Source: Deltaproteobacteria bacterium
GTDB lineage: Bacteria > Desulfobacterota > Desulfobacteria > Desulfobacterales > JAUWMJ01
Length of the DNA: 55,072 nucleotides
Assembly: GCA_030638575.1 (NCBI GenBank)
Contig: DAOWEJ010000105.1
Coordinates: forward strand, 1-55,072
Direction: 5' to 3'
The notes beneath the pieces were generated by a model. It ran no database searches and was not told the origin of the DNA. It saw nothing but the letters and a program-made list of their open reading frames with translations. Below, in pieces: positions 4,168-52,920 of this stretch (the stretch's first letter is position 1; each line of letters starts with the position of its first letter). A program made the translations under genes and the position numbers.

Positions 4168-4387
4168 GGAATGGATTCGATTTTATTCTTAATAATTTAG
4201 ACAGGATCTACAAGATTAACTGGATTTGTTTTTCCAGGTTGTATTGGTATGTCATAGAAAGTAACGAATTGTCTGCGCTATATGAACTTACACGGGTGTT
4301 TTTTCCGCTGAAAGCGGATTATGTTTTTCCGGTTTCTTCCGGAAACCGGAAAACAAACATCCTGAAAATCCTGTAGATCCTGTCTAA
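4168..4387. repeat. Family-A inverted 9-mer cassette
   Basis: TTAGACAGGATCTACAAGATT (4197) and AATCCTGTAGATCCTGTCTAA (ends 4387) form a 20/21 inverted match; internal CCGCTGAAAGCGG and TTTCCGGTTTC..GAAACCGGAAA hairpins; outer GGAATGGATTCGA at 4168. Confidence 0.9.
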
Positions 4388-6369: not shown

Positions 6370-6777
6370 GGAATGGATTCGATTATATATCGTTTGGTGG
6401 ACAGGATTTACAGGATTTTTTGGATTGTTTTTGTTGTTTTCAGTTTCCTGAAGAAACTGAAAACACACAATCGCCTTCGGAGAAACTTATTTATTTTCCA
6501 AATAAAAAACTCCGAATAGTTACGACTAAATTAAGTTTGCTTTATCTAATGACCAAAAGACTTTTTTACCGTAGCAAGCGGAACTTTTTTTGGGTTTTTA
6601 GCGGCTCAGCAATAAATAGGTCGTCAAAAAGCGTAGCTTTGTATTGTAGCAATAAATGTTTAATTCTTCGCCGGAGGCGAATGGAACTTTCAGGCTTTCT
6701 TCCGGAAAGCCTGAAAAAACATCTTGTCCATCCTGTTAATCCTGTCAAAAAATTACACTAAAGATCAAATCCATTCC
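6370..6777. repeat. Family-A cassette with complete outer inverted repeat
   Basis: Outer GGAATGGATTCGAT (6370) / ATCAAATCCATTCC (6764-6777); inner GACAGGATTTACAGGATT / ATCCTGTTAATCCTGTC; two internal hairpin pairs. Confidence 0.9.
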
Positions 6778-7918: not shown

Positions 7919-8173
7919 GACAGGATTAACCCCGGTGAAATGGTTTTTAATTTCACTGGGCAGGCAGGGCAAGCAATCGCCTTCGGCGAACAAGAGATAA
8001 TGACATGCATTTTATAGCACATTGCATTGGTCGTATTCAGATCAAATGAAAGTTTAAAAAATGAGTTGTATAAACAGTCTATTTCCGCTGAAAGCGGATT
8101 AGATTTAATCACTTCCATCCGGGAAGTGATTAAAATAGAAACTATCCTGTATAATCCTGTCAATCCTGTCTAA
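7919..8173. repeat. Family-A cassette, close relative of 4876-5318
   Basis: GACAGGATTAAC...ATCCTGTATAATCCTGTCAATCCTGTCTAA; long near-identical stretches shared with 4880-5107. Confidence 0.9.
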
Positions 8174-8176
8174 TAT

Positions 8177-9049: not shown

Positions 9050-9473
9050 GACAGGAATTACAGGATTTTCAGGATTGATTTGGTTTTTGGGTTTCTCAGT
9101 TTCCCCCTGCCCGCCATTGCTCTCGCGCAGGCGAGGCGGGCGGGGATGAAACTGAGAAAATACCCCAGGTTAAATACGCTACGCTGTCTTTTTTAAAGAA
9201 TTTAACAAGGCAAGCAATCGCCTTCGGTGAAGAAAATAGGTATTATTACTTTCGGCTGAAAGCGGATTAAGTTTCAGCACTTTCTTCCAGAAAGTGAGGG
9301 GAATAATAACTATCCTGAATATCCCTGGCCCAGACCTGGTTTCAAGAACAACAGTTAACTGAAGCCAGTATCTAACACTTAATAACAACATATAAACGAA
9401 ACTACTCTCGTCGCGCCAGGGCAGGCCCCGGTACCATCTGCCGGAGCTACAGGGCAGGCATGTTCATCCTGTC
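9050..9473. repeat. Family-A cassette with four nested inserts
   Basis: GACAGGAATTACAGGATTTTCAGGATT...ATCCTGTC; insert 9322-9426 is near-identical to 5200-5304. Confidence 0.85.
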
Positions 9474-17755: not shown

Positions 17756-17878
17756 ATAGCTCATAGCTGATAGCTCAGAGTTGACAGCTCAAAGCTGATA
17801 GTTCAGAGCTCATAGGGGTTAGGTACTGACAGCTCAGAGATCAAAGCTGATAGGAGTTAGGTGATAATCATGGGTCAT
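17756..17878. repeat. 7-mer array (AGCTSAT-type) on the 3' side of the four-helix-bundle gene
   Basis: ATAGCTC ATAGCTG ATAGCTC AGAGTTG ACAGCTC AAAGCTG ATAGTTC AGAGCTC... Confidence 0.95.
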
Positions 17879-17891
17879 AACAACTAAGCCT

Positions 17892-18251
17892 TTAAGCTTT
17901 AATTGAATTGATGAGGCCGGAAAGCATTCTATTTATTTCTTCGGCTTCTGAATACAATTCATTATACTTTTCTCGTTTCAGCCATTTCTTCTTTAGAAAT
18001 ATTTGTAGCATTGTTACAGTCTCGTAAAGAGACCCCCTGGAAATGTACAAAAAGTGTTTAAACTCCTTTTTCGAATATCTCCCTTTCCCTTCCGATATAT
18101 TCAAAGCCACTGAAGTACTAGAAGCTTCTAACTGTTCGATGAGCCTATAATGTTTCCGTGACGTATCGAGTTCGTCAACGAGATTAATCACTGAAACTGC
18201 AAAATCCAATGCCCTTTGATAAACTTGTAATTCCTCAAAAGCAAATCCCAT
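17892..18251 (-). CDS. Four helix bundle protein (23S rRNA IVS protein / TIGR02436 family)
   Basis: FEELQVYQRA, QLEASSTSVALNISEG, FLYISRGSLYE, MLSGLI; likely start ATG 18251 (AAGGA RBS); track start 18266. Confidence 0.92.
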   Translation of the reverse strand: MGFAFEELQVYQRALDFAVSVINLVDELDTSRKHYRLIEQLEASSTSVALNISEGKGRYSKKEFKHFLYISRGSLYETVTMLQIFLKKKWLKREKYNELYSEAEEINRMLSGLINSIKA

Positions 18252-18267
18252 TATCAATTCCTTCATT

Positions 18268-18353
18268 TATGAGCTGTGAGCTACCATCTGTCAGCTATTC
18301 CCTTACCTATCAGCTATTCCCTATGAGCTGTGAGCTATTACCTGTGAGCTATC
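18268..18353. repeat. Inverted 7-mer array (TGAGCTR) on the 5' side of the four-helix-bundle gene
   Basis: TATGAGCTGTGAGCTA...TATGAGCTGTGAGCTATTACCTGTGAGCTAT, reverse complement of the left-array unit. Confidence 0.95.
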
Positions 18354-20740: not shown

Positions 20741-20968
20741 TTAGACAGGATTAACAGGATGGTCAGGATTATATTTATTTTTTCACTTCCCGGATGGAAG
20801 TGAAAAAGCCTAATCCGCTTTCAGCGGAAAGAAGTTTTCTTTTCGCCGAAGGCGAATTGAATTTTCTCAGTTTCCTGCAGCCGTCGCAGCTTGGCAGATG
20901 CTATGGCGAGGCAAGCCGGGAAGTGATGAAAATTTAAAATATCATGTATAATCCTGTTTATCCTGTCT
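20741..20968. repeat. Family-A cassette (reverse orientation)
   Basis: TTAGACAGGATTAACAGGATGGTCAGGATT...AATCCTGTTTATCCTGTCT; insert 20878-20916. Confidence 0.9.
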
Positions 20969-28334: not shown

Positions 28335-28687
28335 TGGCTGAAAAATACTTGAAATTTATCCTTGTTGATTGAAAAAAAATTAATTATAAGAATAGAGGAT
28401 TGGGTTGATAAATGTCAATATTTGACTTTGTAATTTATTGCTGAATAATGATACTAAACATTTAAATGATAAGGGATTGCATGAACAGCTCATAGCTCAA
28501 AGCTCTCAGGAAAAAAGGATTTTTCATCATTTAATCCCGCTTGCAGCGGGACTATTAACGCATTGCTTTTGTCCAAAAAAAATAGTATATTTCTTAACAA
28601 AATGTTCGAGGTCTGATATTTGACTTTTTAAGCAAAATTAGCCAAATTTTCAAATAGCAAAATTATTCCAGAATAAAAGGAGGTATT

Positions 28688-32407: not shown

Positions 32408-32477
32408 GGGGCGAGAAAGCTCTTAGCTCAAAGCTGATATCTCATAGTTAATAGAGTAAGGGCCGGGAAGGGATCAA

Positions 32478-33662: not shown

Positions 33663-34901
33663 CTATAATAAACCATCTTTGTTTTGATGAGAAAAAACAA
33701 TTCCAAGATCCTTATCTCCCCTTCCTGAAAGATTAATGACGATAACCTCGCTGCCTGGCCGTGTGCATGCATAATCAGCGGCCCATGCAACTGCATGGGA
33801 ACTTTCAAGTGCCGGAATAATCCCTTCAAAGGAACAAAGGGTGTAAAACGCTTTAAGGGCCTGGTTATCATCCACCGATACGTATCGGACTCTTTTTGAA
33901 TCCTTAAATAATGCATGTTCCGGTCCGACACCCGGGTAATCGAGACCTGCTGAAATCGAATGAGCTTCTTTGATTTGACCCTTTTCATCCTGGAGCACAT
34001 ATGATTTTGACCCGTGAAGTACTCCAATAGAACCTTCTGAAAGAGTGGCGGCATGTTTTCCACTCTTTATCCCTGTTCCCGCAGCCTCCACTCCAACCAT
34101 TTCCACAGGATCATCCATAAAGGAGTAAAAAAGCCCCATGGCATTACTTCCACCGCCCACGCAGGCAACAAGCATATCCGGCAGTTTTCCCGTGAATTCA
34201 ATAATCTGCTTTCTTGTTTCCTCACCTATCACCTTTTGAAAATCACGAACCATGACTGGATAAGGGTGGGGACCTGCAACCGATCCTATTACATAAAACG
34301 TATCCATCACCGCTCCGACCCAGTAACGCATGGCCTCATTCATTGCATCTTTAAGCGTTCCTGTTCCCGAAACTACTTTTATAACCTCAGCTCCGAGCAG
34401 TTCCATCCGCTGAACATTCGCCGCCTGCCGGCGGATGTCTTCTTCCCCCATGAAAATGCGGCATCCCATCCCGAAAAGTGCAGCTACCGTCGCTGTAGCA
34501 ACGCCGTGCTGCCCCGCGCCGGTCTCGGCTATCAATTTTTTCTTTCCCATCCAGCGGGCGAGAAGCGCCTGCCCAAGTGTGTTGTTAATTTTGTGAGCAC
34601 CGGTATGGGCAAGATCTTCCCTCTTTAAATAGATCGATGCCCCTTTAAGATGATCGCTAAGCCGTTTTGCATGAAAAAGGGGAGTCGGCCGGCCCGCATA
34701 ATTTTGGAGCAAAGCATAAAATTCATTTTGAAAAGCTTTGTCCGGTAAAAACTTTTTATAGGCTTCTTCCAGGTCCAGAAGCGCGGGCATGAGAGTTTCC
34801 CCGACATACCGTCCGCCATAAGCCCCAAAATGGCCTTTTGAATCGGGTACTACACTTTCCATGTATGTTCCGCTTTCCTCGGAATAGCTTTTGTTTTGCA
34901 T
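33663..34901 (-). CDS. trpB: Tryptophan synthase beta chain (C-terminal part of the 643-aa trpF-trpB ORF; has its own RBS and ATG)
   Basis: [37 protein letters not shown]; AGGAG upstream of ATG 34901. Confidence 0.93.
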
Positions 34902-35594
34902 TAAAAAAATTCTCCTTGTTTTCCTTTTTCGATTACACCTTGAAACAGCCTTAATAAAAGCCTCAACTTTACTAATATCCTTTCGACCCGGACCAAATTC
35001 AACACCGGAACTTACATCCACAGCATCCGGAGTACTTTTTAAAATAGCCTTGCCAACATTTTCAGGGTTCAGCCCGCCGGCAAGGATTACCTGATGGTTT
35101 TTCACCAAAAACCGTGCATTTTCCCAGTTCCAGGAAAGCGCATTACCGCCCGGAAGCACCCCGCCGCCACACTCCACTAAAAACGCCGAAGGCTCATAAT
35201 ATATTGCGCTGTCAAAGGTCGGTACTGAGTTAACAAATAATGTTTTGATCACCGTAATATTCTCTTTGCGAAGACGGCGAACAAGTTGGGGCGATTCCCT
35301 GCCGTGTAGCTGTACCGCCTTAAGAAAACAGTGCTGTACCTTTTCCATGATAAAAGAAAAAGACTCGTTTACAAAAACGCCCACGGTTACGGCCTTAGAA
35401 GAAATCGCCAGGCATATATCTCTGGCCTCATCATCAGTTACATGCCTGGGGCTTTTCGGATAAAACACGCAACCTATTGCATCTGCTCCCAGTGCAATAC
35501 ATTCCAACGCATTTTCAACTCTCTTAAGCCCGCACACCTTGACCTGAGGGGTGTGGGTATTGTCCGTTGTTTGTTGTTTTTTGTAATTTTGCAT
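34902..35594 (-). CDS. trpF: Phosphoribosylanthranilate isomerase (reads in frame into trpB in this assembly)
   Basis: VKVCGL, KSPR, VGVFVN, QLHG, LAGGL, DVSSGVE. Confidence 0.92.
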
Positions 35595-35620: not shown

Positions 35621-35775
35621 CGAGCGCTTCGCTTTAAGAGCACTACGTTCGAAGAGCGCTTCGCTTGAGGATTAAGGCTTTAGCCTCAAGGACGTCAGTC
35701 CGCTCTTCAAGGACGCAAGTCCGCTCTTCAAGGACGCAAGTCCGCTCTTCAAGGACGCAAGTCCGCTCTTCAAGG
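35621..35775. repeat. Inverted hairpin-studded arrays including a 4.3x 21-bp tandem repeat
   Basis: TCAAGGACGCAAGTCCGCTCT units at 35686, 35707, 35728 and 35749; AAGAGC+GCTTCGCT-type units at 35621-35669. Confidence 0.9.
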
Positions 35776-35841: not shown

Positions 35842-36627
35842 CTAAGCGCCTAAAAGAAACTGCAAAAAAGCCCTTGCATCCGGCGCTCTTACAAGGCTTT
35901 CACCAACCAGAAAATTCCAGATCCCGGCTTCCCGTAGTTTTTCAATGTCTTGGCGTCCCTTGATTCCGCTTTCCGCCACAGCTACCTGACCTTGATTAAG
36001 AATAGAAACCAGCTTGGCAGATGTTTCAACGTTCGTCTTAAAAGAACTCAAATTCCTGTTGTTGATCCCGATAAGCCTTGCGCCTGCTAAGGTAGCTGTC
36101 TCAATATCCTTTTCAGAATGTGTTTCCACCAGAACGTCCATGCCGATTTCTATGCAAAGATCCATATAATCTTTAAGCTGCTGTTGGGAAAGAATTCGCA
36201 CAATAAGGAGCAAAGCATCAGCTCCAATTACTGAAGATTCGTAAATCTGGTACGAAGATATCAAAAAATCTTTACGAAGCACCGGAATTGAAACAGATTT
36301 TCTTGCCTTTTTAAGGTCTTCAATACTTCCACTGAAATAGCGCCTGTCCGTTAAAACCGACAGGGCGCTTGCACCGCCCAGCTCGTAGTCAGAAGCATAT
36401 TTTGCCACGTCCAGATCAGGTCGAATAATTCCCCTGGACGGAGAAGCACGCTTGATTTCAGCAATCACGTTCACCCCAAACGGTCCTGGTTCCAAAAGCT
36501 GTTTTACAAATGGGCGCCTTTTCTTCGGGTAGAATACCTGATCGCGCAGTTCATTTTCAGGCAGCCGATTTTTAGCCTTTGCGATTTCCTGTTTTTTATA
36601 CTCAACGATCTGTTGTAAAATATTCAT
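35842..36627 (-). CDS. trpC: Indole-3-glycerol phosphate synthase
   Basis: IAEIKRASPS, SVLTD, LRKDF, GINNRNL, ESGI. Confidence 0.97.
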   Translation of the reverse strand: MNILQQIVEYKKQEIAKAKNRLPENELRDQVFYPKKRRPFVKQLLEPGPFGVNVIAEIKRASPSRGIIRPDLDVAKYASDYELGGASALSVLTDRRYFSGSIEDLKKARKSVSIPVLRKDFLISSYQIYESSVIGADALLLIVRILSQQQLKDYMDLCIEIGMDVLVETHSEKDIETATLAGARLIGINNRNLSSFKTNVETSAKLVSILNQGQVAVAESGIKGRQDIEKLREAGIWNFLVGESLVRAPDARAFLQFLLGA

Positions 36628-38499: not shown

Positions 38500-38566
38500 T
38501 TCGATTTCTCCTTAAGGCCGCTAATTTTTGATTTTTTATTTCGCTCCAACAAACTTCCTATCAACT

Positions 38567-38669
38567 TTGAGCTATGAGCTTACAGGCTTCCCAGCCTCCC
38601 AACCTGCTTCTTGCCAGCCATGAGCTATCAGCTGTCACCTATGAGCTATGAGCTGTCAGCCATCAGCTC
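38567..38669. repeat. Orphan 7-mer (TGAGCTA) and 8-mer arrays overlapping the trpE 3' end
   Basis: TTTGAGCTATGAGCT..GGCTTCCCAGCCTCCC..ATGAGCTATCAGCTGTCACCTATGAGCTATGAGCTGTCAGCCATCAGCTC. Confidence 0.85.
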
Positions 38670-40136
38670 CAACGCTTTCTGCATAGCCATTGCCTTGTTG
38701 AGTGTTTCTACCCGTTCTTTCTCCGGATCGGAATCGGCCACAATCCCGGCCCCGGCCCGAACCGTCATCCGCCCGTTCTCTATGCAGGCGGTCCTGATTG
38801 TAATGGCCATATCCATATTCCCGTCAAAAGAAACATAACCTACCGCACCGCCGTAAGGTCCCCTGGGCTCTTGTTCAAGTTCGTCAATAATCTCCATTGC
38901 CCTTACTTTGGGCGCCCCGGATAAAGTCCCGGCGGGAAATGTGGAAGAAAGAAGATCCCATGCATCACAACCCGATTTAAGATCGCAGCAGATGTTCGAA
39001 ACCAGATGCATGACATGTGAATACCGCTCTATAACCATCAGATCGGTAACCTGGACTGTTCCGGTCGCTGCCACCCGTCCAAGGTCATTTCTCCCCAGAT
39101 CGACAAGCATAAGGTGCTCGGCCCTCTCTTTCTCATCTTTAAGAAGTTCATCTGCGTTGACTCTGTCCTCCTGTTCGTTTTTTCCCCTGGTCCGCGTACC
39201 GGCAATAGGACGCAGTGTTGCAATCCCTTTTTCCAGCCTGACCATGGTCTCCGGAGAAGACCCGACGAGCGCAAGGCCATCCAGATGGAGAAAATAAAGA
39301 TATGGGGACGGGTTGATAAATCGCTGCGCTCGGTAGAGAGACCAAAGATCTAACAGAGGTTCACAAACAAAGGGTTGAGAAATGACGGTCTGTATAACAT
39401 CTCCCTTCTGTATATATTTTTTAACCTTCTCAACCTGAGATAGAAAGATCTCATCTTTCAATTGAGCTTTCAGCTCATAATTCCTCCGAACAGGCAAATC
39501 ATCAATTTTCAAATTTTCCTTTAAATCCTGTTTTGTTTTTGCAAGCATTGACTCGATACGGCTATGTGCGGTTTCGTATATTTGACCTGTATTTTCTTTC
39601 CCATCCGTAAAGGAAATTACAACGCAAAGCAGAGTGTTACGAACATTGTCAAAAATAAGCATCTCATCCGGTACCATGAAATGAGCAAGAGGCTGTTTTT
39701 CCGGCAGCCTGTTGGGGATCGATTCAATAAAAGAGACCATCTCATACGTTAAATAACCTACCAGCCCTCCCCAGAATCTCGGAAGACCGGGCACAAAGGC
39801 GGGTTTGAACTTTTTCATAAAATCTTTCAGGGCATTGAACGGGCTGTCATGATGAGAGATCTTTTCAGAACACCCGTTTTTTTCTATCTCAATAAAATCC
39901 GGATAAACCTTAATATAACAGCGGGCAGATGCACTCATAAAACTGTATCTTCCCCATCGTTCACCACCTTCCACGCTCTCGAAAAGAAAGACAGGCCCTT
40001 TGTTTTTATAGATTTTTCTTAAAAGAGAAACAGGTGTTTCAGTATCTGCCAGCACTTCAGAACAAACCGGGATTACATTATAATCTCTGGCCAGGCTCTT
40101 AAACCGCTCTTTGTCCGGAAATTTATTTAGCTGCAT
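38646..40136 (-). CDS. trpE: Anthranilate synthase component I
   Basis: LFESVEGG..GRYS, NPSPY, SSPE, EHLMLVDLGRND, GAPKVRAM, AGAGIVADS. Confidence 0.97.
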   Translation of the reverse strand: MQLNKFPDKERFKSLARDYNVIPVCSEVLADTETPVSLLRKIYKNKGPVFLFESVEGGERWGRYSFMSASARCYIKVYPDFIEIEKNGCSEKISHHDSPFNALKDFMKKFKPAFVPGLPRFWGGLVGYLTYEMVSFIESIPNRLPEKQPLAHFMVPDEMLIFDNVRNTLLCVVISFTDGKENTGQIYETAHSRIESMLAKTKQDLKENLKIDDLPVRRNYELKAQLKDEIFLSQVEKVKKYIQKGDVIQTVISQPFVCEPLLDLWSLYRAQRFINPSPYLYFLHLDGLALVGSSPETMVRLEKGIATLRPIAGTRTRGKNEQEDRVNADELLKDEKERAEHLMLVDLGRNDLGRVAATGTVQVTDLMVIERYSHVMHLVSNICCDLKSGCDAWDLLSSTFPAGTLSGAPKVRAMEIIDELEQEPRGPYGGAVGYVSFDGNMDMAITIRTACIENGRMTVRAGAGIVADSDPEKERVETLNKAMAMQKALELMADSS

Positions 40137-48637: not shown

Positions 48638-48858
48638 TCTTTATTTTATAACATTTTAGCGCTTAAAATATTATCTTATTCAGGTAATTTTGAAATTTCC
48701 ATATGCCATTTATGCCATACAAATCGTATTTGTAAAGCATATAGTTACGACTTTCGGGTGCGGCTTCCATCGTAACATTAACTGGAAAACCCCATTATTT
48801 CGCGACTGTAAGCCACTACTACGCCTCATGATTATCCCGCTTTAGCGGGACACGCCTT

Positions 48859-48910
48859 GAATTTGAACTTTTTACGAAACCGTCTAAATCGGACTTTTTA
48901 CGAGTTCATC
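48859..48910. repeat. MITE family D right end
   Basis: 48859-48906 is identical (48 bp) to 52531-52578. Confidence 0.85.
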
Positions 48911-48994
48911 AAATGTGATGGAGTCTCTCATAACTTTGTTTCTTCCTTGCTTTTTTGCCTCGTACATGAACTTATCGGCCAGATGATTGAGTGG
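48884..48994 (-). pseudogene. C-terminal remnant of a GGDEF (diguanylate cyclase) domain
   Basis: LADKFMYEAKKQGRNKV matches the AD.ALY.AK..GRN.V end of GGDEF domains; no start codon or upstream part. Confidence 0.65.
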
Positions 48995-51952
48995 TCAGTT
49001 TTTTAATACCCATTTCTCAATTACCTCAAAGACAAGCTCCTTTTTAATCGGCTTTTTGATATAATCATTCATACCTGCTTCAAAACATATCTCCCTGTCA
49101 CCCTTTATGGCATTGGCGGTCATGGCGACAATCGGAACATGTTCCGATTGAGTTGATAGCTGACAGATGATAGCTGATAGGTTTGGTTCTTCCTTTGCTG
49201 CATGCTTTGAGCTATTGGCTGTGAACTGTGAGCTGTCTGCTTTGAGCTGTGAGTTGTGAGCTATGAGCTCTTCCTCCCACTTTCTGATTTCCTCTGTTGC
49301 CTCAAGACCGTCCATTTCAGGCATCTGGATGTCCATGAAAATCATGTCAAAATCGTCCGGAGACGAGGTGTATTTTTCAACTGCTTCCCTGCCGTTATTG
49401 GCAACTTCCACATGATAACCTGCCTTTTTTAGCATTAATGTTGCCAGCTTCTGGTTGACAGGATTGTCCTCGACAAAAAGTATACACATAGAATGCTTGG
49501 CTTCTTCCTTAATGGAATGTTGGGTAACAATTGCGCTTTGCTCCGGTTTTTCTTTGAGCTGTGGGCCATGAGCTGTAAGCCTTTCAATCATCTTTACAAG
49601 TTTTTCTCTGCGAACAGGCTTACTCAAGAAGCCGTCAAATCCTGCGTTTTCGCATTCTTTTGCGCTCCTCTCCATAAGTGAAGAAAGGGCAAGAAGCACT
49701 ATTTGGGTCGGTTCGATCCCGTCATTTGACATTTGACATTTATCATTTGCGTCTTCTTCAATCAATGACTTCTCCCAATTTCGGACTTCTCTTGCCACAT
49801 CATACCCGCTAACGGACGGCATCTGTATATCTAAAATGCAAAGGTCAAAAGGTTCCCCGGTTTCCAAGGCTTTTTGCAGTGCATGTACAACCTCCTTTCC
49901 GTCCAGCAGAGTAACTGCATTAATTTCTGCCGAATTTAAAGTATGCCTTAATATCTCCAGGTTTGTACGGTTGTCATCAACAATGAGAATCTTTTTACCG
50001 ACAAGCGAAACAGGAGCAACTCTTTTGACTTCTACTTTTTCAACCTTTTTGAGCCATGCGGTAAAGTGAAAAACGCTTCCGGGGTTTTGGTCGGAGCGTA
50101 GCGTAGATCCCGCAGAAGGCGGGATTGGTGGTTGAGTAGTTGAGTGGTTGAATGAAGGGCTTTGAGCCCAGACATCTCCCCCCATAAGCTTGGATATTTT
50201 CTTGCATATGGAAAGACCCAGGCCTGTTCCTCCGTACTTTCTCGTGGTTGAACCGTCCGCCTGCTCAAAGGGCTCAAAAATGGCGGACAGTTTTTCTTCA
50301 GGAATACCTATACCGGTATCGCGTATTTTGGCATGAAGCTTAATCCTTTCTTCATCTTCCTCCTCCACCTCAATGGAAAGTTCAATCTCACCTGTTTCAG
50401 TAAATTTTGGGGCATTACCCATAAGGTTTGTAAGAACCTGCCTGTACCGCGTCGGGTCACCTTGAACCATTGCAGGAACGTTATCCCCGATACGGCACAA
50501 AACCTCGATGGGTTTTGATTCAATCTTCGGGCGAATCAGTTCACAGATGTCGTAGGCAAGAAGCTCGAAATCAAAATCTATCTCTTCAAAATCAAGTTGC
50601 CCTGCCTCGATCTTTGAAAAATCTAGGATATCGTTAATCAATGAGAGCAAAGATTCTCCGCTTCTTTTAACTGTTGCCACATAATCGTTCTGCTCTTCAT
50701 TAAGGTCAGTATCAAGGAGCATGTCTGAAAAACCTATAACTGAATTCATGGGTGTGCGGATTTCGTGGCTCATGTTGGCAAGAAATTCACTTTTTGCCAT
50801 GCTGGCAGCCTCGGCCATTAAAGCCATATCGTTGGCCCTCTCAATGGCCTTCTCAAGCTGGCGGTTGGTTTCAGCAAGCTGTTCTTCGGCCTGCTTGCGC
50901 TCTGTAATATCAGAATCGACCCCCCGATAGCCGATAAGCTCACCTTTTTCATCAAGTATCGGAATTCCGCTGGTTAAAAAACAAACCATTTGTCCGTCTT
51001 TTGTAAAATTCCAGTTTTCCAGGTTACGTATTGGGCGCTTATCTTTGACAATCTCACTAAAGATAGCGCCGATTCTTTCCTTCTCATCAGGATGCATGAA
51101 ATCAATGGGGGTTTTGCCTATCATTTCCTCTGCCTTATAACCCAGGATTTCTTCCACCTTTCCCGAGCAATATGTATACACCCAACTCCTGTCTGTCTCC
51201 CAGATCCAGTCAGACATGCTTTCCACAATGTTTCTAAAACGGCTTTCTGATTGCTCGCGATTGGTGATTTCAGACTCAAGTTTCTCGTTGAGTTTTTCAA
51301 CATGTTTCTTTTCATTTTCTAAATGCTTAATCAGATTGGTATTTTCAAACCGAATTTCCAATGAACGAAAAATACTTGTGTTCAAACGCAGTGCGGTAAC
51401 TATCATTATAACCATGAAGAGAAATATCATTCCTGCTATAGCGATGTAAAGATCACTTCCCTGCAGTAGGAGTCGAATAATAAGGGGAATCGATGCTGTA
51501 AGACTGAAAGCTAAAAAAGCTCTCATCATTATTGAATATGTTCCCAGCGCTCCTGCTATCATCCCCCCCATAACGAGGATAAGAAAAATCTGGTGCAAAT
51601 CAGAGTTCACACTAAACAGAAAGAATCCAGCAAAACCCCAAACAATACCGCTAACGGCTATTCCTGTTATAAGCACTATATTCCAGTAATCGGCTTTAAG
51701 AAGTTTAGATGAACTGCGCTTGTATTTATACAGCGATATATACCTGATGAACGTTATCAGAAAATTGCTGAGAAGCCATATGATCAATACCGTATGCGAA
51801 ACAACATTCCAAAGGATGAAAGTCAGGATAGCCGAATTCACTATAGTTGCGATCATGCTTACAGAAACGTTTCCATAAAGGATATTAACTTGCTCTGCGT
51901 ATAAACCTGTTTTATTTGTGTTTTTTGACATATTTAAAAGCTGTCCTTTCAT
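48995..51952 (-). CDS. Membrane-bound hybrid histidine kinase (TM-PAS-HisKA-HATPase-REC-REC) with repeat-derived insertions
   Basis: [44 protein letters not shown]. Confidence 0.95.
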
Positions 51953-52393: not shown

Positions 52394-52582
52394 GACGGTC
52401 TCGTAAAAAGTCTCCCGCTTCAGTTCAGCGGGACGTTGTGCTGCATTTCGTAATCATTCAACGTACGATAAGTACTTCTTGTGATTACAAAATTTGCACG
52501 CCCTTCTTGTCCCGTTGCTTTTTAGCGGGGGAATTTGAACTTTTTACGAAACCGTCTAAATCGGACTTTTTACGAGTTTATC
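52394..52582. mobile_element. MITE family D
   Basis: GACGGTCTCGTAAAAAGT (52394) / ACTTTTTACGAAACCGTC (52539-52556), plus a second right end to ~52582; related left end at ~26869-26908. Confidence 0.75.
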
Positions 52583-52920
52583 AAAAAATAAATTCCGATT
52601 TACCGGAAATGGTTAAATTCCTTATCAAATGGAAGAAGAAGTGTTAGCGTGATAACTTGCTGGTCATTTCATCTTCAATACCTTTTAAAAGCCATAAATT
52701 TTCTACATGAACATATTGTTTCGAAATTGTAGATGATATTCCTCCCTTGACAAAACAGGGATGATTTTCATAAGATACATTTTTTATTTAAGAAAATTGT
52801 TTATTTTAATGTCTGTGTCAGTCTGCCTATCGAAGCAAATCATAGATACCGTATATCAGAGCCCGATTGAATAAAAACTCATTCAATCGGAGTGGCTAAT
52901 ACACAAATAAAGGAGCTAAA

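Follow-up and report, generated by a model that had tools for sequence, protein, structure and literature searches.

Intergenic-type repeats in frame at four loop sites of a hybrid histidine kinase from a Desulfobacterales genome

Introduction

The STRR heptamers of cyanobacteria are tandem 7-nucleotide (nt) repeats similar to the TAACTGA direct repeats. The latter occur in marine Beggiatoaceae and cyanobacteria, mostly between genes; one direction contains stops in every frame, whereas the opposite direction is occasionally translated in frame as LSVISYQ. In the genome studied there, copies inside open reading frames (ORFs) lie mostly at protein ends or in hypothetical proteins (MacGregor 2015, PMC4679880). 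Rickettsia palindromic elements (RPEs) are repeats of ~150 bp that resemble miniature inverted-repeat transposable elements, stand in frame inside genes (nearly half are in ORFs) and encode a conserved peptide (PMC10969869). The tandem repeats of Borgs evolve fast, occur both between genes and in ORFs; copies in ORFs never break the frame, encode low-complexity and probably disordered segments, and have units divisible by three (PMC9879509). Here we characterize four repeat-like inserts in a hybrid histidine kinase gene of a deltaproteobacterium of the order Desulfobacterales. The gene lies in a 55,072-nt stretch (the window), which is contig C95 of a 2.3-Mb assembly estimated to be 76% complete. 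The first-pass observation proves to be real, and its interpretation is supported, with corrections given below. We put at about 75% the probability that the four segments are translated and tolerated repeat insertions and expansions in a working kinase gene.

An intact kinase with four inserts in loops

Re-reading of the sequence confirmed the 985-amino-acid (aa) ORF that the first-pass annotation had reported, together with the peptides and positions of all four inserts (Table 1). Pfam matches were obtained for HisKA (4.4e-24), HATPase_c (3.6e-27) and Response_reg (2.3e-44, in three stretches), with the best Response_reg stretch ending at residue 895, that is, at profile position 70 of 111. 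The protein has the phospho-accepting histidine, the N and G boxes, the acidic-pocket aspartate of the receiver and the conserved lysine of a hybrid histidine kinase, and residues H396, N509/N513, D545, G575–G579, D708, K778, D874 and K967 are invariant or nearly so in two alignments of homologues (A1 and A2). The kinase is intact and conserved. Its named relatives come from metagenome-assembled genomes of Desulfobacterales/Thermodesulfobacteriota, and the sequencing runs that contain the stretch are labelled cold-seep and marine-sediment metagenomes.

The units within the gene are 7 or 8 nt long and imperfect (75–92% matches in Tandem Repeats Finder (TRF)). Insert 3 is matched by three AGCTCAN units with two mismatches (49555–49574). 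An AlphaFold2 model of the kinase, built from a 120-sequence alignment (mean predicted local distance difference test (pLDDT) 74.6, predicted template modelling score 0.51; receiver cores ~90), places insert 1 between the strands at residues 594–597 and 627–636, with pLDDT below 50 at 603–621. Insert 2 lies at the end of helix 716–736 and in the loop preceding strand 752–757, insert 3 follows helix 782–794 (pLDDT below 50 at 797–814), and insert 4 comprises an extension of helix 882–910, a loop and a short helix (926–934) before strand 941–945, with pLDDT below 50 at 914–936. All four are thus predicted to occupy low-confidence loops or linkers, the location first proposed for them. Inserts 2 and 4 both begin 16 residues past the phospho-accepting aspartate, at R-x-W-E, and the statement that they hit the equivalent alpha3–beta4 loop of the two receivers therefore holds. 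In the CheY fold, the region between helix 3 and strand 4 is on the face away from the phosphorylation site.

The inserts match dispersed, mostly intergenic repeats

We searched the genome for tandem arrays with one detector (at least 80% self-identity at a given lag over 21 nt). Period 7 accounts for 129 arrays, compared with 1, 1 and 4 for periods 4, 5 and 6 and with 38 and 19 for periods 8 and 9. Among the heptamer arrays there are 46 unit types, the AGCTSAN types being some of the commonest; the unit type of insert 2 (AAATGAC) forms three other arrays (on C14, C33 and C94). A three-unit AGCTCAN pattern with up to two mismatches has 78 matches in the genome versus 3 for the reversed control, and the TCCCGC…GCGGGA hairpin pattern of insert 1 has 59 versus 0. 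These repeats are more abundant than chance would give, and the inserts are copies of repeats dispersed through this genome, mostly between its genes.

Few copies lie in long open frames, defined as frames open for at least 50 codons on both sides of the array: 8 of the 129 heptamer arrays, two of them in the kinase gene, and a single hairpin among 59, which is the kinase copy. The description of the inserts as intergenic-type repeats was therefore apt. A looser, genome-wide TRF census at score 30, which includes many weak two-copy matches and from which we use only the summary proportions, placed 39 of 368 regions of period 7, 14, 21 or 28 inside long open frames, against 159 of 366 for periods divisible by three. 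The six in-frame arrays outside the kinase are distributed among the linker of a fused MurE–MurF ORF (two), a dihydroorotase-like protein (one), a place upstream of the probable start of a LipB-like ORF (one) and a 147-aa ORF that is probably no gene (two). Besides the kinase, only two proteins of this genome were found to have in-frame arrays, the MurE–MurF fusion and the dihydroorotase-like protein.

The fusion (1047 aa) comprises two full sets of Mur ligase domains, MurE-like and then MurF-like, and the 29-aa linker between the sets is encoded by two heptamer arrays; a repeat-filled intergenic spacer appears to have become an in-frame linker. In the dihydroorotase-like amidohydrolase, the array peptide E-Q-P-A-T-R-N-K-Q-Q-A (residues 64–75) directly precedes the start of the Amidohydro_1 match.

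Insert 4 is a cassette with an open frame and a weakened fold

The AGCTSAN arrays between genes are often organized as two inverted arms around a ~28-nt spacer that has a small hairpin of its own. Beyond the copies with coordinates in Table 1, of which that on C106 has a ~230-nt payload, a cassette was found on C33, and the TCCCGC hairpin can be nested behind the spacer (C33:29016 and window position 28535). Insert 4 is collinear with the cassettes on C64, C77, C27, C50 and C33: arm, spacer and arm all align, which matches its first description as a full, empty inverted heptamer cassette. With seven other copies of the cassette and the many copies of the small hairpin, these elements constitute a dispersed palindromic family, one member of which stands in frame at a structurally permissive place of a functional gene.

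One alternative is that the arrays and hairpins are kept as nucleic-acid signals—regulator-binding, RNase III-type cleavage or pause sites—with the peptides as a by-product. TAACTGA repeats have been proposed as sites of post-transcriptional regulation (MacGregor 2015, PMC4679880), arrays are present at the same kinase sites in many genomes (see below), and five intergenic cassettes fold strongly (z −3.7 to −10.7; −0.28 to −0.47 kcal per nt). The cassette within the gene, however, has lost most of this hairpin strength (−21.7 kcal/mol, z −2.4, −0.17 kcal per nt), unit sequences at the same site differ between genomes, and no Rfam family matched in the window. We regard conservation as a nucleic-acid signal as decidedly improbable.

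Insert 4 also differs from the intergenic copies in having an open frame. The kinase cassette has no stop in the kinase reading frame and one in each of the other two sense frames, whereas a stop is present in 35 of the 36 frames of six intergenic cassettes. The difference can be seen in the seventh base of the unit: 124 of 192 units elsewhere have a T there, compared with a single one of the 7 that make up the sense arm in the kinase; a T in this position, followed by the AG of the next unit, makes a TAG stop. No internal stop was found in any of the 58 homologous places listed, and the frame preservation reported for this gene extends to every homologous locus examined. Reading the inserts as part of the protein, we consider them probably translated.

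The same four sites vary across the kinase family

Full-length orthologues (P0003–P0005) are 73–75% identical to the kinase and 984, 953 and 930 aa long, and many further homologues with a different sensor part share 60–77% identity over residues 200–985. In the kinase alignments the four insert sites are hot spots of insertion and deletion. Alignment, proposed as the means to delimit the inserts, revealed baseline loops in insert-free homologues at three sites: 4 aa at site 1 (at baseline in 28 of 119 homologues), 6–8 aa at site 2 and 6 aa at site 4 ('KGFDT'). Among the 115–119 homologues of A2, lengths range over 3–96 aa at site 1, 6–61 aa at site 2 and 5–62 aa at site 4. Expanded loops have a DNA self-identity of 0.63–0.83 at lag 7, exceeding every other lag tested, and the best amino-acid self-identity is at lag 7 in 22 of 63 site-2 segments of at least 14 aa. 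Relative to the insert-free homologues, the inserts are true insertions. The first-pass annotation had named the same segments in orthologues from repeat-free genomes as a refutation, and this did not come about: baseline-length homologues exist (L009, L010, L016 and others), and the homologue genomes checked have repeats of their own. No further close orthologue emerged from a search of representatives, in which many of the top stretches (uncounted) end at residues 890–902 or 598–604, in agreement with the insert borders.

The inserts are nevertheless not private to this genome. The site-4 cassette is common to several homologues (P0009 and, within the same genus, L090), and sharing extends to part of insert 1 and to the surroundings of insert 2. 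At site 1, close homologues have the peptide of the 8-nt array (S-L-N-H-S-T-T-Q-P) and lack the hairpin part. At site 3, L090 has a cleaner array, encoding LTAHSLQLK. Between the window and L090, all insertions and deletions at site 4 are multiples of three (21 nt, equal to three heptamers, and 30 nt, equal to a nested palindrome). For 14 units we predicted the 5-aa peptides that perfect arrays would encode: exact matches lie at the four sites in 69 of 120 proteins, and elsewhere in only 2, although the sites comprise 8,587 residues and the remainder 107,056.

Each genome fills these sites from its own repertoire. Unit types at the kinase sites of homologues include CAATCTT, CAATCGT, CAATCAA, AACCCGT, CAACCAG and AATCCGA. 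The kinases L012, L013/L015 and L009 carry CAATCNN loops, and CAATCAA arrays (up to three mismatches) have 68, 80 and 30 matches in their respective genomes, compared with 9 in the genome of L011 and 3 in that of the window. AGCTCAN arrays, with their 78 matches in the window genome, have 45 (control, 7) in G002 and 9 (control, 4) in G001, two genomes of the same genus. The G002 kinase, L090, shares the site-4 cassette; in the G001 kinase the loop is shorter and the array in it has decayed. In L090 (G002:C182), a 27–30-nt palindrome is nested in the left arm at site 4 and, in the opposite orientation, in the site-1 array, and gives an open 10-aa peptide in each orientation. It was found at 12 places in G002 (two of them in the kinase), 3 in G003 and none in G001 or the window genome G000; its peptide P-V-C-V-R-T-R-T-G-R recurs in P0005 (site 3) and in P0003 and P0006 (both site 4). 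In a paralogue 44% identical to the kinase, the corresponding receiver loop includes four AGCTCAN units in the G002 and G003 copies and a decayed segment of the same length in the G001 copy. Throughout the kinase family, then, the four sites are hot spots of length variation, and each is loaded with repeat families of the genome in which the kinase resides.

The paralogues (L181–L183, at G001:C85, G002:C202 and G003:C611) represent a second hybrid kinase family, with three receivers, and have repeat-derived segments at the same ATPase-turn and receiver-loop sites.

Could the inserts have arisen purely locally, by slippage from proto-repeats in ancestral loop codons, with their likeness to the dispersed repeats reflecting a genome-wide bias towards 7-nt slippage? 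Site 2 speaks for such a process. Baseline loops there already amount to about two units (for example, AAATCCGAAATC in L010 and L017), lengths step through 8, 15 and 22 aa in the DNA loci and peak at 10, 17 and 24 aa in A2, and insert 2 is exactly 7 aa longer than its counterparts in P0008 and P0020, which read …EKITND…. Heptamers are also over-represented and slippage-prone elsewhere (PMC4679880). The data for site 2 are accounted for no less well by three heptamers (7 aa) added in place than by insertion of a cassette. As an account of all four sites, however, slippage without import is improbable: insert 4 has the full arm–spacer–arm order of the intergenic cassettes, spacer included; the insert-1 hairpin is one of 59 dispersed copies and is absent from close homologues; the palindrome peptide (PVCVRTRTGRQ) appears at different sites in P0005, P0003 and P0006; the L090 palindrome occupies sites 1 and 4 in opposite orientations; and the unit types in the loops follow the dispersed repertoire of each genome.

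A further and unlikely idea is that the four loops act as landing pads, where existing arrays draw in additional arrays and hairpins, either through insertion targeted to arrays or through gene conversion with the many intergenic copies. If so, each genome would keep rewriting the same surface loops of the kinase with its own repeats, a mechanism-driven and lineage-specific generator of new loop sequence in signalling proteins that might help to distinguish the numerous hybrid-kinase paralogues in these bacteria from one another.

Independent contigs and RNA libraries

Seven runs from four studies contain at least 80% of the sampled words of positions 49000–50300, and six of the seven are flagged as possible sources of the assembly. 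Four runs were compared as Logan contigs (X2, X4, X7 and X15). X2 record 9 covers 48900–50774 and X4 record 18 covers 49186–50316, both with no difference; in X7, which is not flagged as a source, record 25 covers 48903–49863 with four base differences and no gap, and record 29 covers 50009–50764 with two differences. Contigs from four studies bridge the inserts without insertions or deletions, and an assembly artefact, which the first-pass annotation had named as a possible undoing of its claim, is therefore rejected. X15, an RNA run according to its record, has exact contigs at 49511–49718 and 50115–50374, which include insert 3 and a portion of insert 1. Such libraries may contain DNA, so the match gives no more than a hint that RNA keeps these segments.

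That the inserts are absent from the mature product or unreal, through removal at the RNA level in the manner of intervening sequences or through assembly chimeras, is extremely improbable. It would draw on the gene for a 23S rRNA intervening-sequence protein that lies between inverted arrays in the same genome, and on De Bruijn contigs of one run, X4, that break within the cassette, where records 17 and 18 overlap (49186–49210). Yet X2 record 9 and X7 records 25 and 29 bridge every insert without gaps, and the contigs from the RNA library hold insert 3 and part of insert 1 unchanged. Removal at the RNA level would moreover not select for frame, for multiples of three or against stops, all three of which are observed, and is very unlikely. 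Some joints skip ~172–178 nt around site 4; their sides are short (20–27 nt) and were matched at a low likeness setting. We read them as homologues from other organisms with different loop contents and did not use them as evidence of excision. One such joint (in X7) has a different heptamer array between its sides.

The same contigs bear on whether the tracts form a contingency locus, in which frameshifts caused by slippage would switch the whole kinase, or receiver 2, between off and on. Since units are 7 nt long, gain or loss of one shifts the frame, and arrays are located before and inside receiver 2, where a shift gives a truncated but still plausible protein. Nevertheless, the tracts are imperfect (75–85% matches by TRF), all of the homologous places listed are open, and no insertion or deletion was found among the contigs of the four runs, although contigs drop rare variants. 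Such a switch is very improbable.

A proposed origin of the inserts

The reading that we favour, of translated and tolerated insertions and expansions, can be set out as follows. The genome's own repeats are tandem arrays of 7–9-nt units, often as two inverted arms around a small hairpin, and segments of this kind inside the kinase gene would be read through by the ribosome. The segments occupy places that can accommodate additional residues: the beta-hairpin turn of the ATPase domain, the stretch from helix 3 to strand 4 in both receivers, and the inter-receiver linker. Repeats could enter by two routes. Ready-made modules (the site-4 cassette, the site-1 hairpin and the 27–30-nt palindrome of the sister genome) may be imported by insertion or by gene conversion from other copies, and slippage may add or remove heptamer units locally. 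Selection on the kinase would pass only those changes that keep the frame (three heptamers equal 21 nt or 7 aa) and those variants that are free of stops, and would allow the hairpin to decay. The products are low-complexity loops, probably disordered and most likely neutral or mildly modulating; we suppose that they have no specific function.

Several points weigh against this account. Translation is deduced from frame and stop statistics. Of the inserts, the RNA-library contigs reach just insert 3 and a portion of insert 1, and they may stem from DNA. The structural model is of moderate quality, low predicted confidence within the inserts is no proof of disorder, and inserts 2 and 4 are in part helical in the model. 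By our own count, ~36 of 44 residues of the site-4 insert are conserved between the window and P0009, compared with 73% overall; the peptide is thus about as conserved as the rest of the protein, which is compatible with shared age or with constraint on the peptide, and neutrality is not established. The array units in the peptide test were picked after they had been seen at the sites, and the count therefore demonstrates localization rather than an unbiased frequency. Finally, the account offers no reason for the concentration of inserts in this kinase family, and only two other proteins with in-frame arrays were found in this genome.

If the favoured reading is correct, non-coding repeat DNA has become protein sequence without breaking a conserved enzyme: a 7-nt unit that is incompatible with the frame and nearly excluded from genes still enters four permissive loops and persists there in three-unit steps. 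With dozens of relatives filling these sites from repeats of their own genomes, the family is a natural series for study, suited to the interplay of permissive sites, slippage and mobile hairpins, to the rate of loop turnover and to the effect of receiver-loop extension on the phosphorelay. Annotators should not take the low-complexity stretches of these kinases for errors; among the repeat peptides that mark them are LIAHSSQ, LSAISYQ and QPATRNP.

Other repeats and features of the window

Several intergenic repeats of the window served as comparators (Table 1). One of them, a pair of inverted AGCTSAN arrays, surrounds a small gene for a 124-aa protein of the 23S_rRNA_IVP family (PF05635, E = 3.9e-32), an arrangement that recalls a stem-loop intervening sequence, yet is in intergenic DNA. 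The genome has four homologues of this protein (tblastn), and the strict array detector places an array next to only one of the four; it misses even the arrays beside the window's own gene because their units alternate, and with four homologues and this blind spot no general link between such genes and arrays could be demonstrated.

A ~95-nt dispersed repeat, which includes the TCCCGC…GCGGGA hairpin, flanks the kinase gene on both sides and has 58 BLAST matches in the genome; it too had no Rfam match. The window also contains a tandem repeat of a 21-nt unit (4.3 copies, 97% matches) that is unlike the heptamer families, and a 9-nt family (ACAGGATTT and its complement) in several intergenic spacers along a run of minus-strand genes.

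Table 1. Coordinates of the kinase gene, its inserts and the repeats compared with them (window positions unless a contig is given)
Feature	Position	Strand	Description
Hybrid histidine kinase gene	48995–51952	minus	Intact ORF, 985 aa; membrane N-terminus followed by the domains below
Kinase domains	residues		PAS 238–354; HisKA 386–451; HATPase_c 498–630; receiver 1 ~654–794; receiver 2 ~823–983
Insert 1	50091–50156	minus	HATPase_c beta-hairpin turn after 'VWAQS', residues ~598–624; 8-nt array, nested hairpin, short tail
Hairpin in insert 1	50108–50124		TCCCGC-5 nt-GCGGGA, 17 nt
Insert 2	49721–49749	minus	Receiver 1, alpha3–beta4 region; four AAATGAC/AAATGTC-type heptamers, NDKCQMSND
Insert 3	49553–49580	minus	Linker between receivers 1 and 2; degenerate AGCTCAN array, LTAHGPQLK
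Insert 4	49151–49270	minus	Receiver 2; complete 'empty' inverted cassette
Insert 4, left arm	49221–49269	minus	7 AGCTCAN-type units
Insert 4, spacer	49179–49220	minus	
Insert 4, right arm	49151–49178	minus	4 TCAGCTN-type units
Period-7 array (TRF)	49154–49180		3.9 copies
Period-7 array (TRF)	49218–49269		7.4 copies; also readable as period 21
Period-7 array (TRF)	49723–49749		3.9 copies
Period-8 array (TRF)	50131–50151		2.6 copies
Intergenic cassette	C64:2066–2188		
Intergenic cassette	C77:20485–20579		
Intergenic cassette	C27:3685–3760		
Intergenic cassette	C50:19245–19330		
Intergenic cassette	C101:10064–10163		
Cassette with payload	C106:1362–1620		
Intergenic comparator	17756–18353		Inverted AGCTSAN arrays 17756–17860 and 18268–18353 around a small gene
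23S_rRNA_IVP gene	17892–18266	minus	
Intergenic comparator	28487–28560	plus	Short AGCTCAN array, spacer, nested TCCCGC…GCGGGA hairpin behind
Intergenic comparator	32416–32444	plus	AGCTCAN/AGCTGAN array
Intergenic comparator	38561–38668		Arrays of the same heptamer family, at the 3′ end of ORF 38646–40136
~95-nt dispersed repeat	48761–48935; 52531–52585		
21-nt tandem repeat	35686–35775		Between ORFs 33663–35594 and 35842–36627
9-nt repeat family	4359–4383; 6401–6418; 8144–8174; 9051–9076; 20745–20771		
Mur ligase fusion (L186)	G000:C114:18625–21765	minus	
Dihydroorotase-like amidohydrolase (L187)	G000:C75:2806–4188	minus	

Comparison with known systems

The alpha3–beta4 loop of receivers in hybrid kinases is a known permissive place with ordinary length variation, and many homologues have a few extra residues there. 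The extra residues described here differ from such variation in being encoded by repeat families of the genome, with lag-7 periodicity in the DNA. Among the papers listed by our literature searches, none describes heptamer arrays in receiver-domain loops, nor is there any joint description of recurrence at four fixed loops in one conserved kinase family, genome-specific units and nested hairpins.

The first-pass annotation had drawn a parallel to RPEs with different elements. The parallel is apt as an analogy but does not amount to membership. In both cases a dispersed palindromic family also stands in frame at permissive places of functional genes, adds a peptide where the fold permits it and thereby supplies new protein sequence. 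In contrast to RPEs, the modules here are tandem arrays of 7–9-nt units and hairpins of 17–30 nt, are almost excluded from ORFs, differ between genomes and recur at four sites of one protein family. With Borg repeats they share nucleotide tandem repeats between genes and in ORFs, a preserved frame and probably disordered segments. Borg units in ORFs are perfect and divisible by three, whereas the units here are 7 or 8 nt long, imperfect and rare in ORFs, and the frame is therefore kept only in three-unit steps.

The closest likeness in unit length is to the TAACTGA and STRR heptamers, which, like the 129 arrays of this genome, are over-represented tandem 7-nt arrays located mostly between genes; here, too, stops stand in every frame of one orientation and a few arrays are translated in the other. 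The units here are not TAACTGA; they are AGCTSAN (TAGCTGA/TAGCTCA), AAATGAC and 44 further types, the nearest being one base away, and the LSAISYQ-type peptide found here is one residue from the LSVISYQ of the TAACTGA repeats. Unlike the TAACTGA repeats, those of the kinase lie within folded domains of a conserved protein, at four sites, as inverted-arm cassettes and with nested hairpins, and the genome has 46 unit types where one favoured unit was described there.

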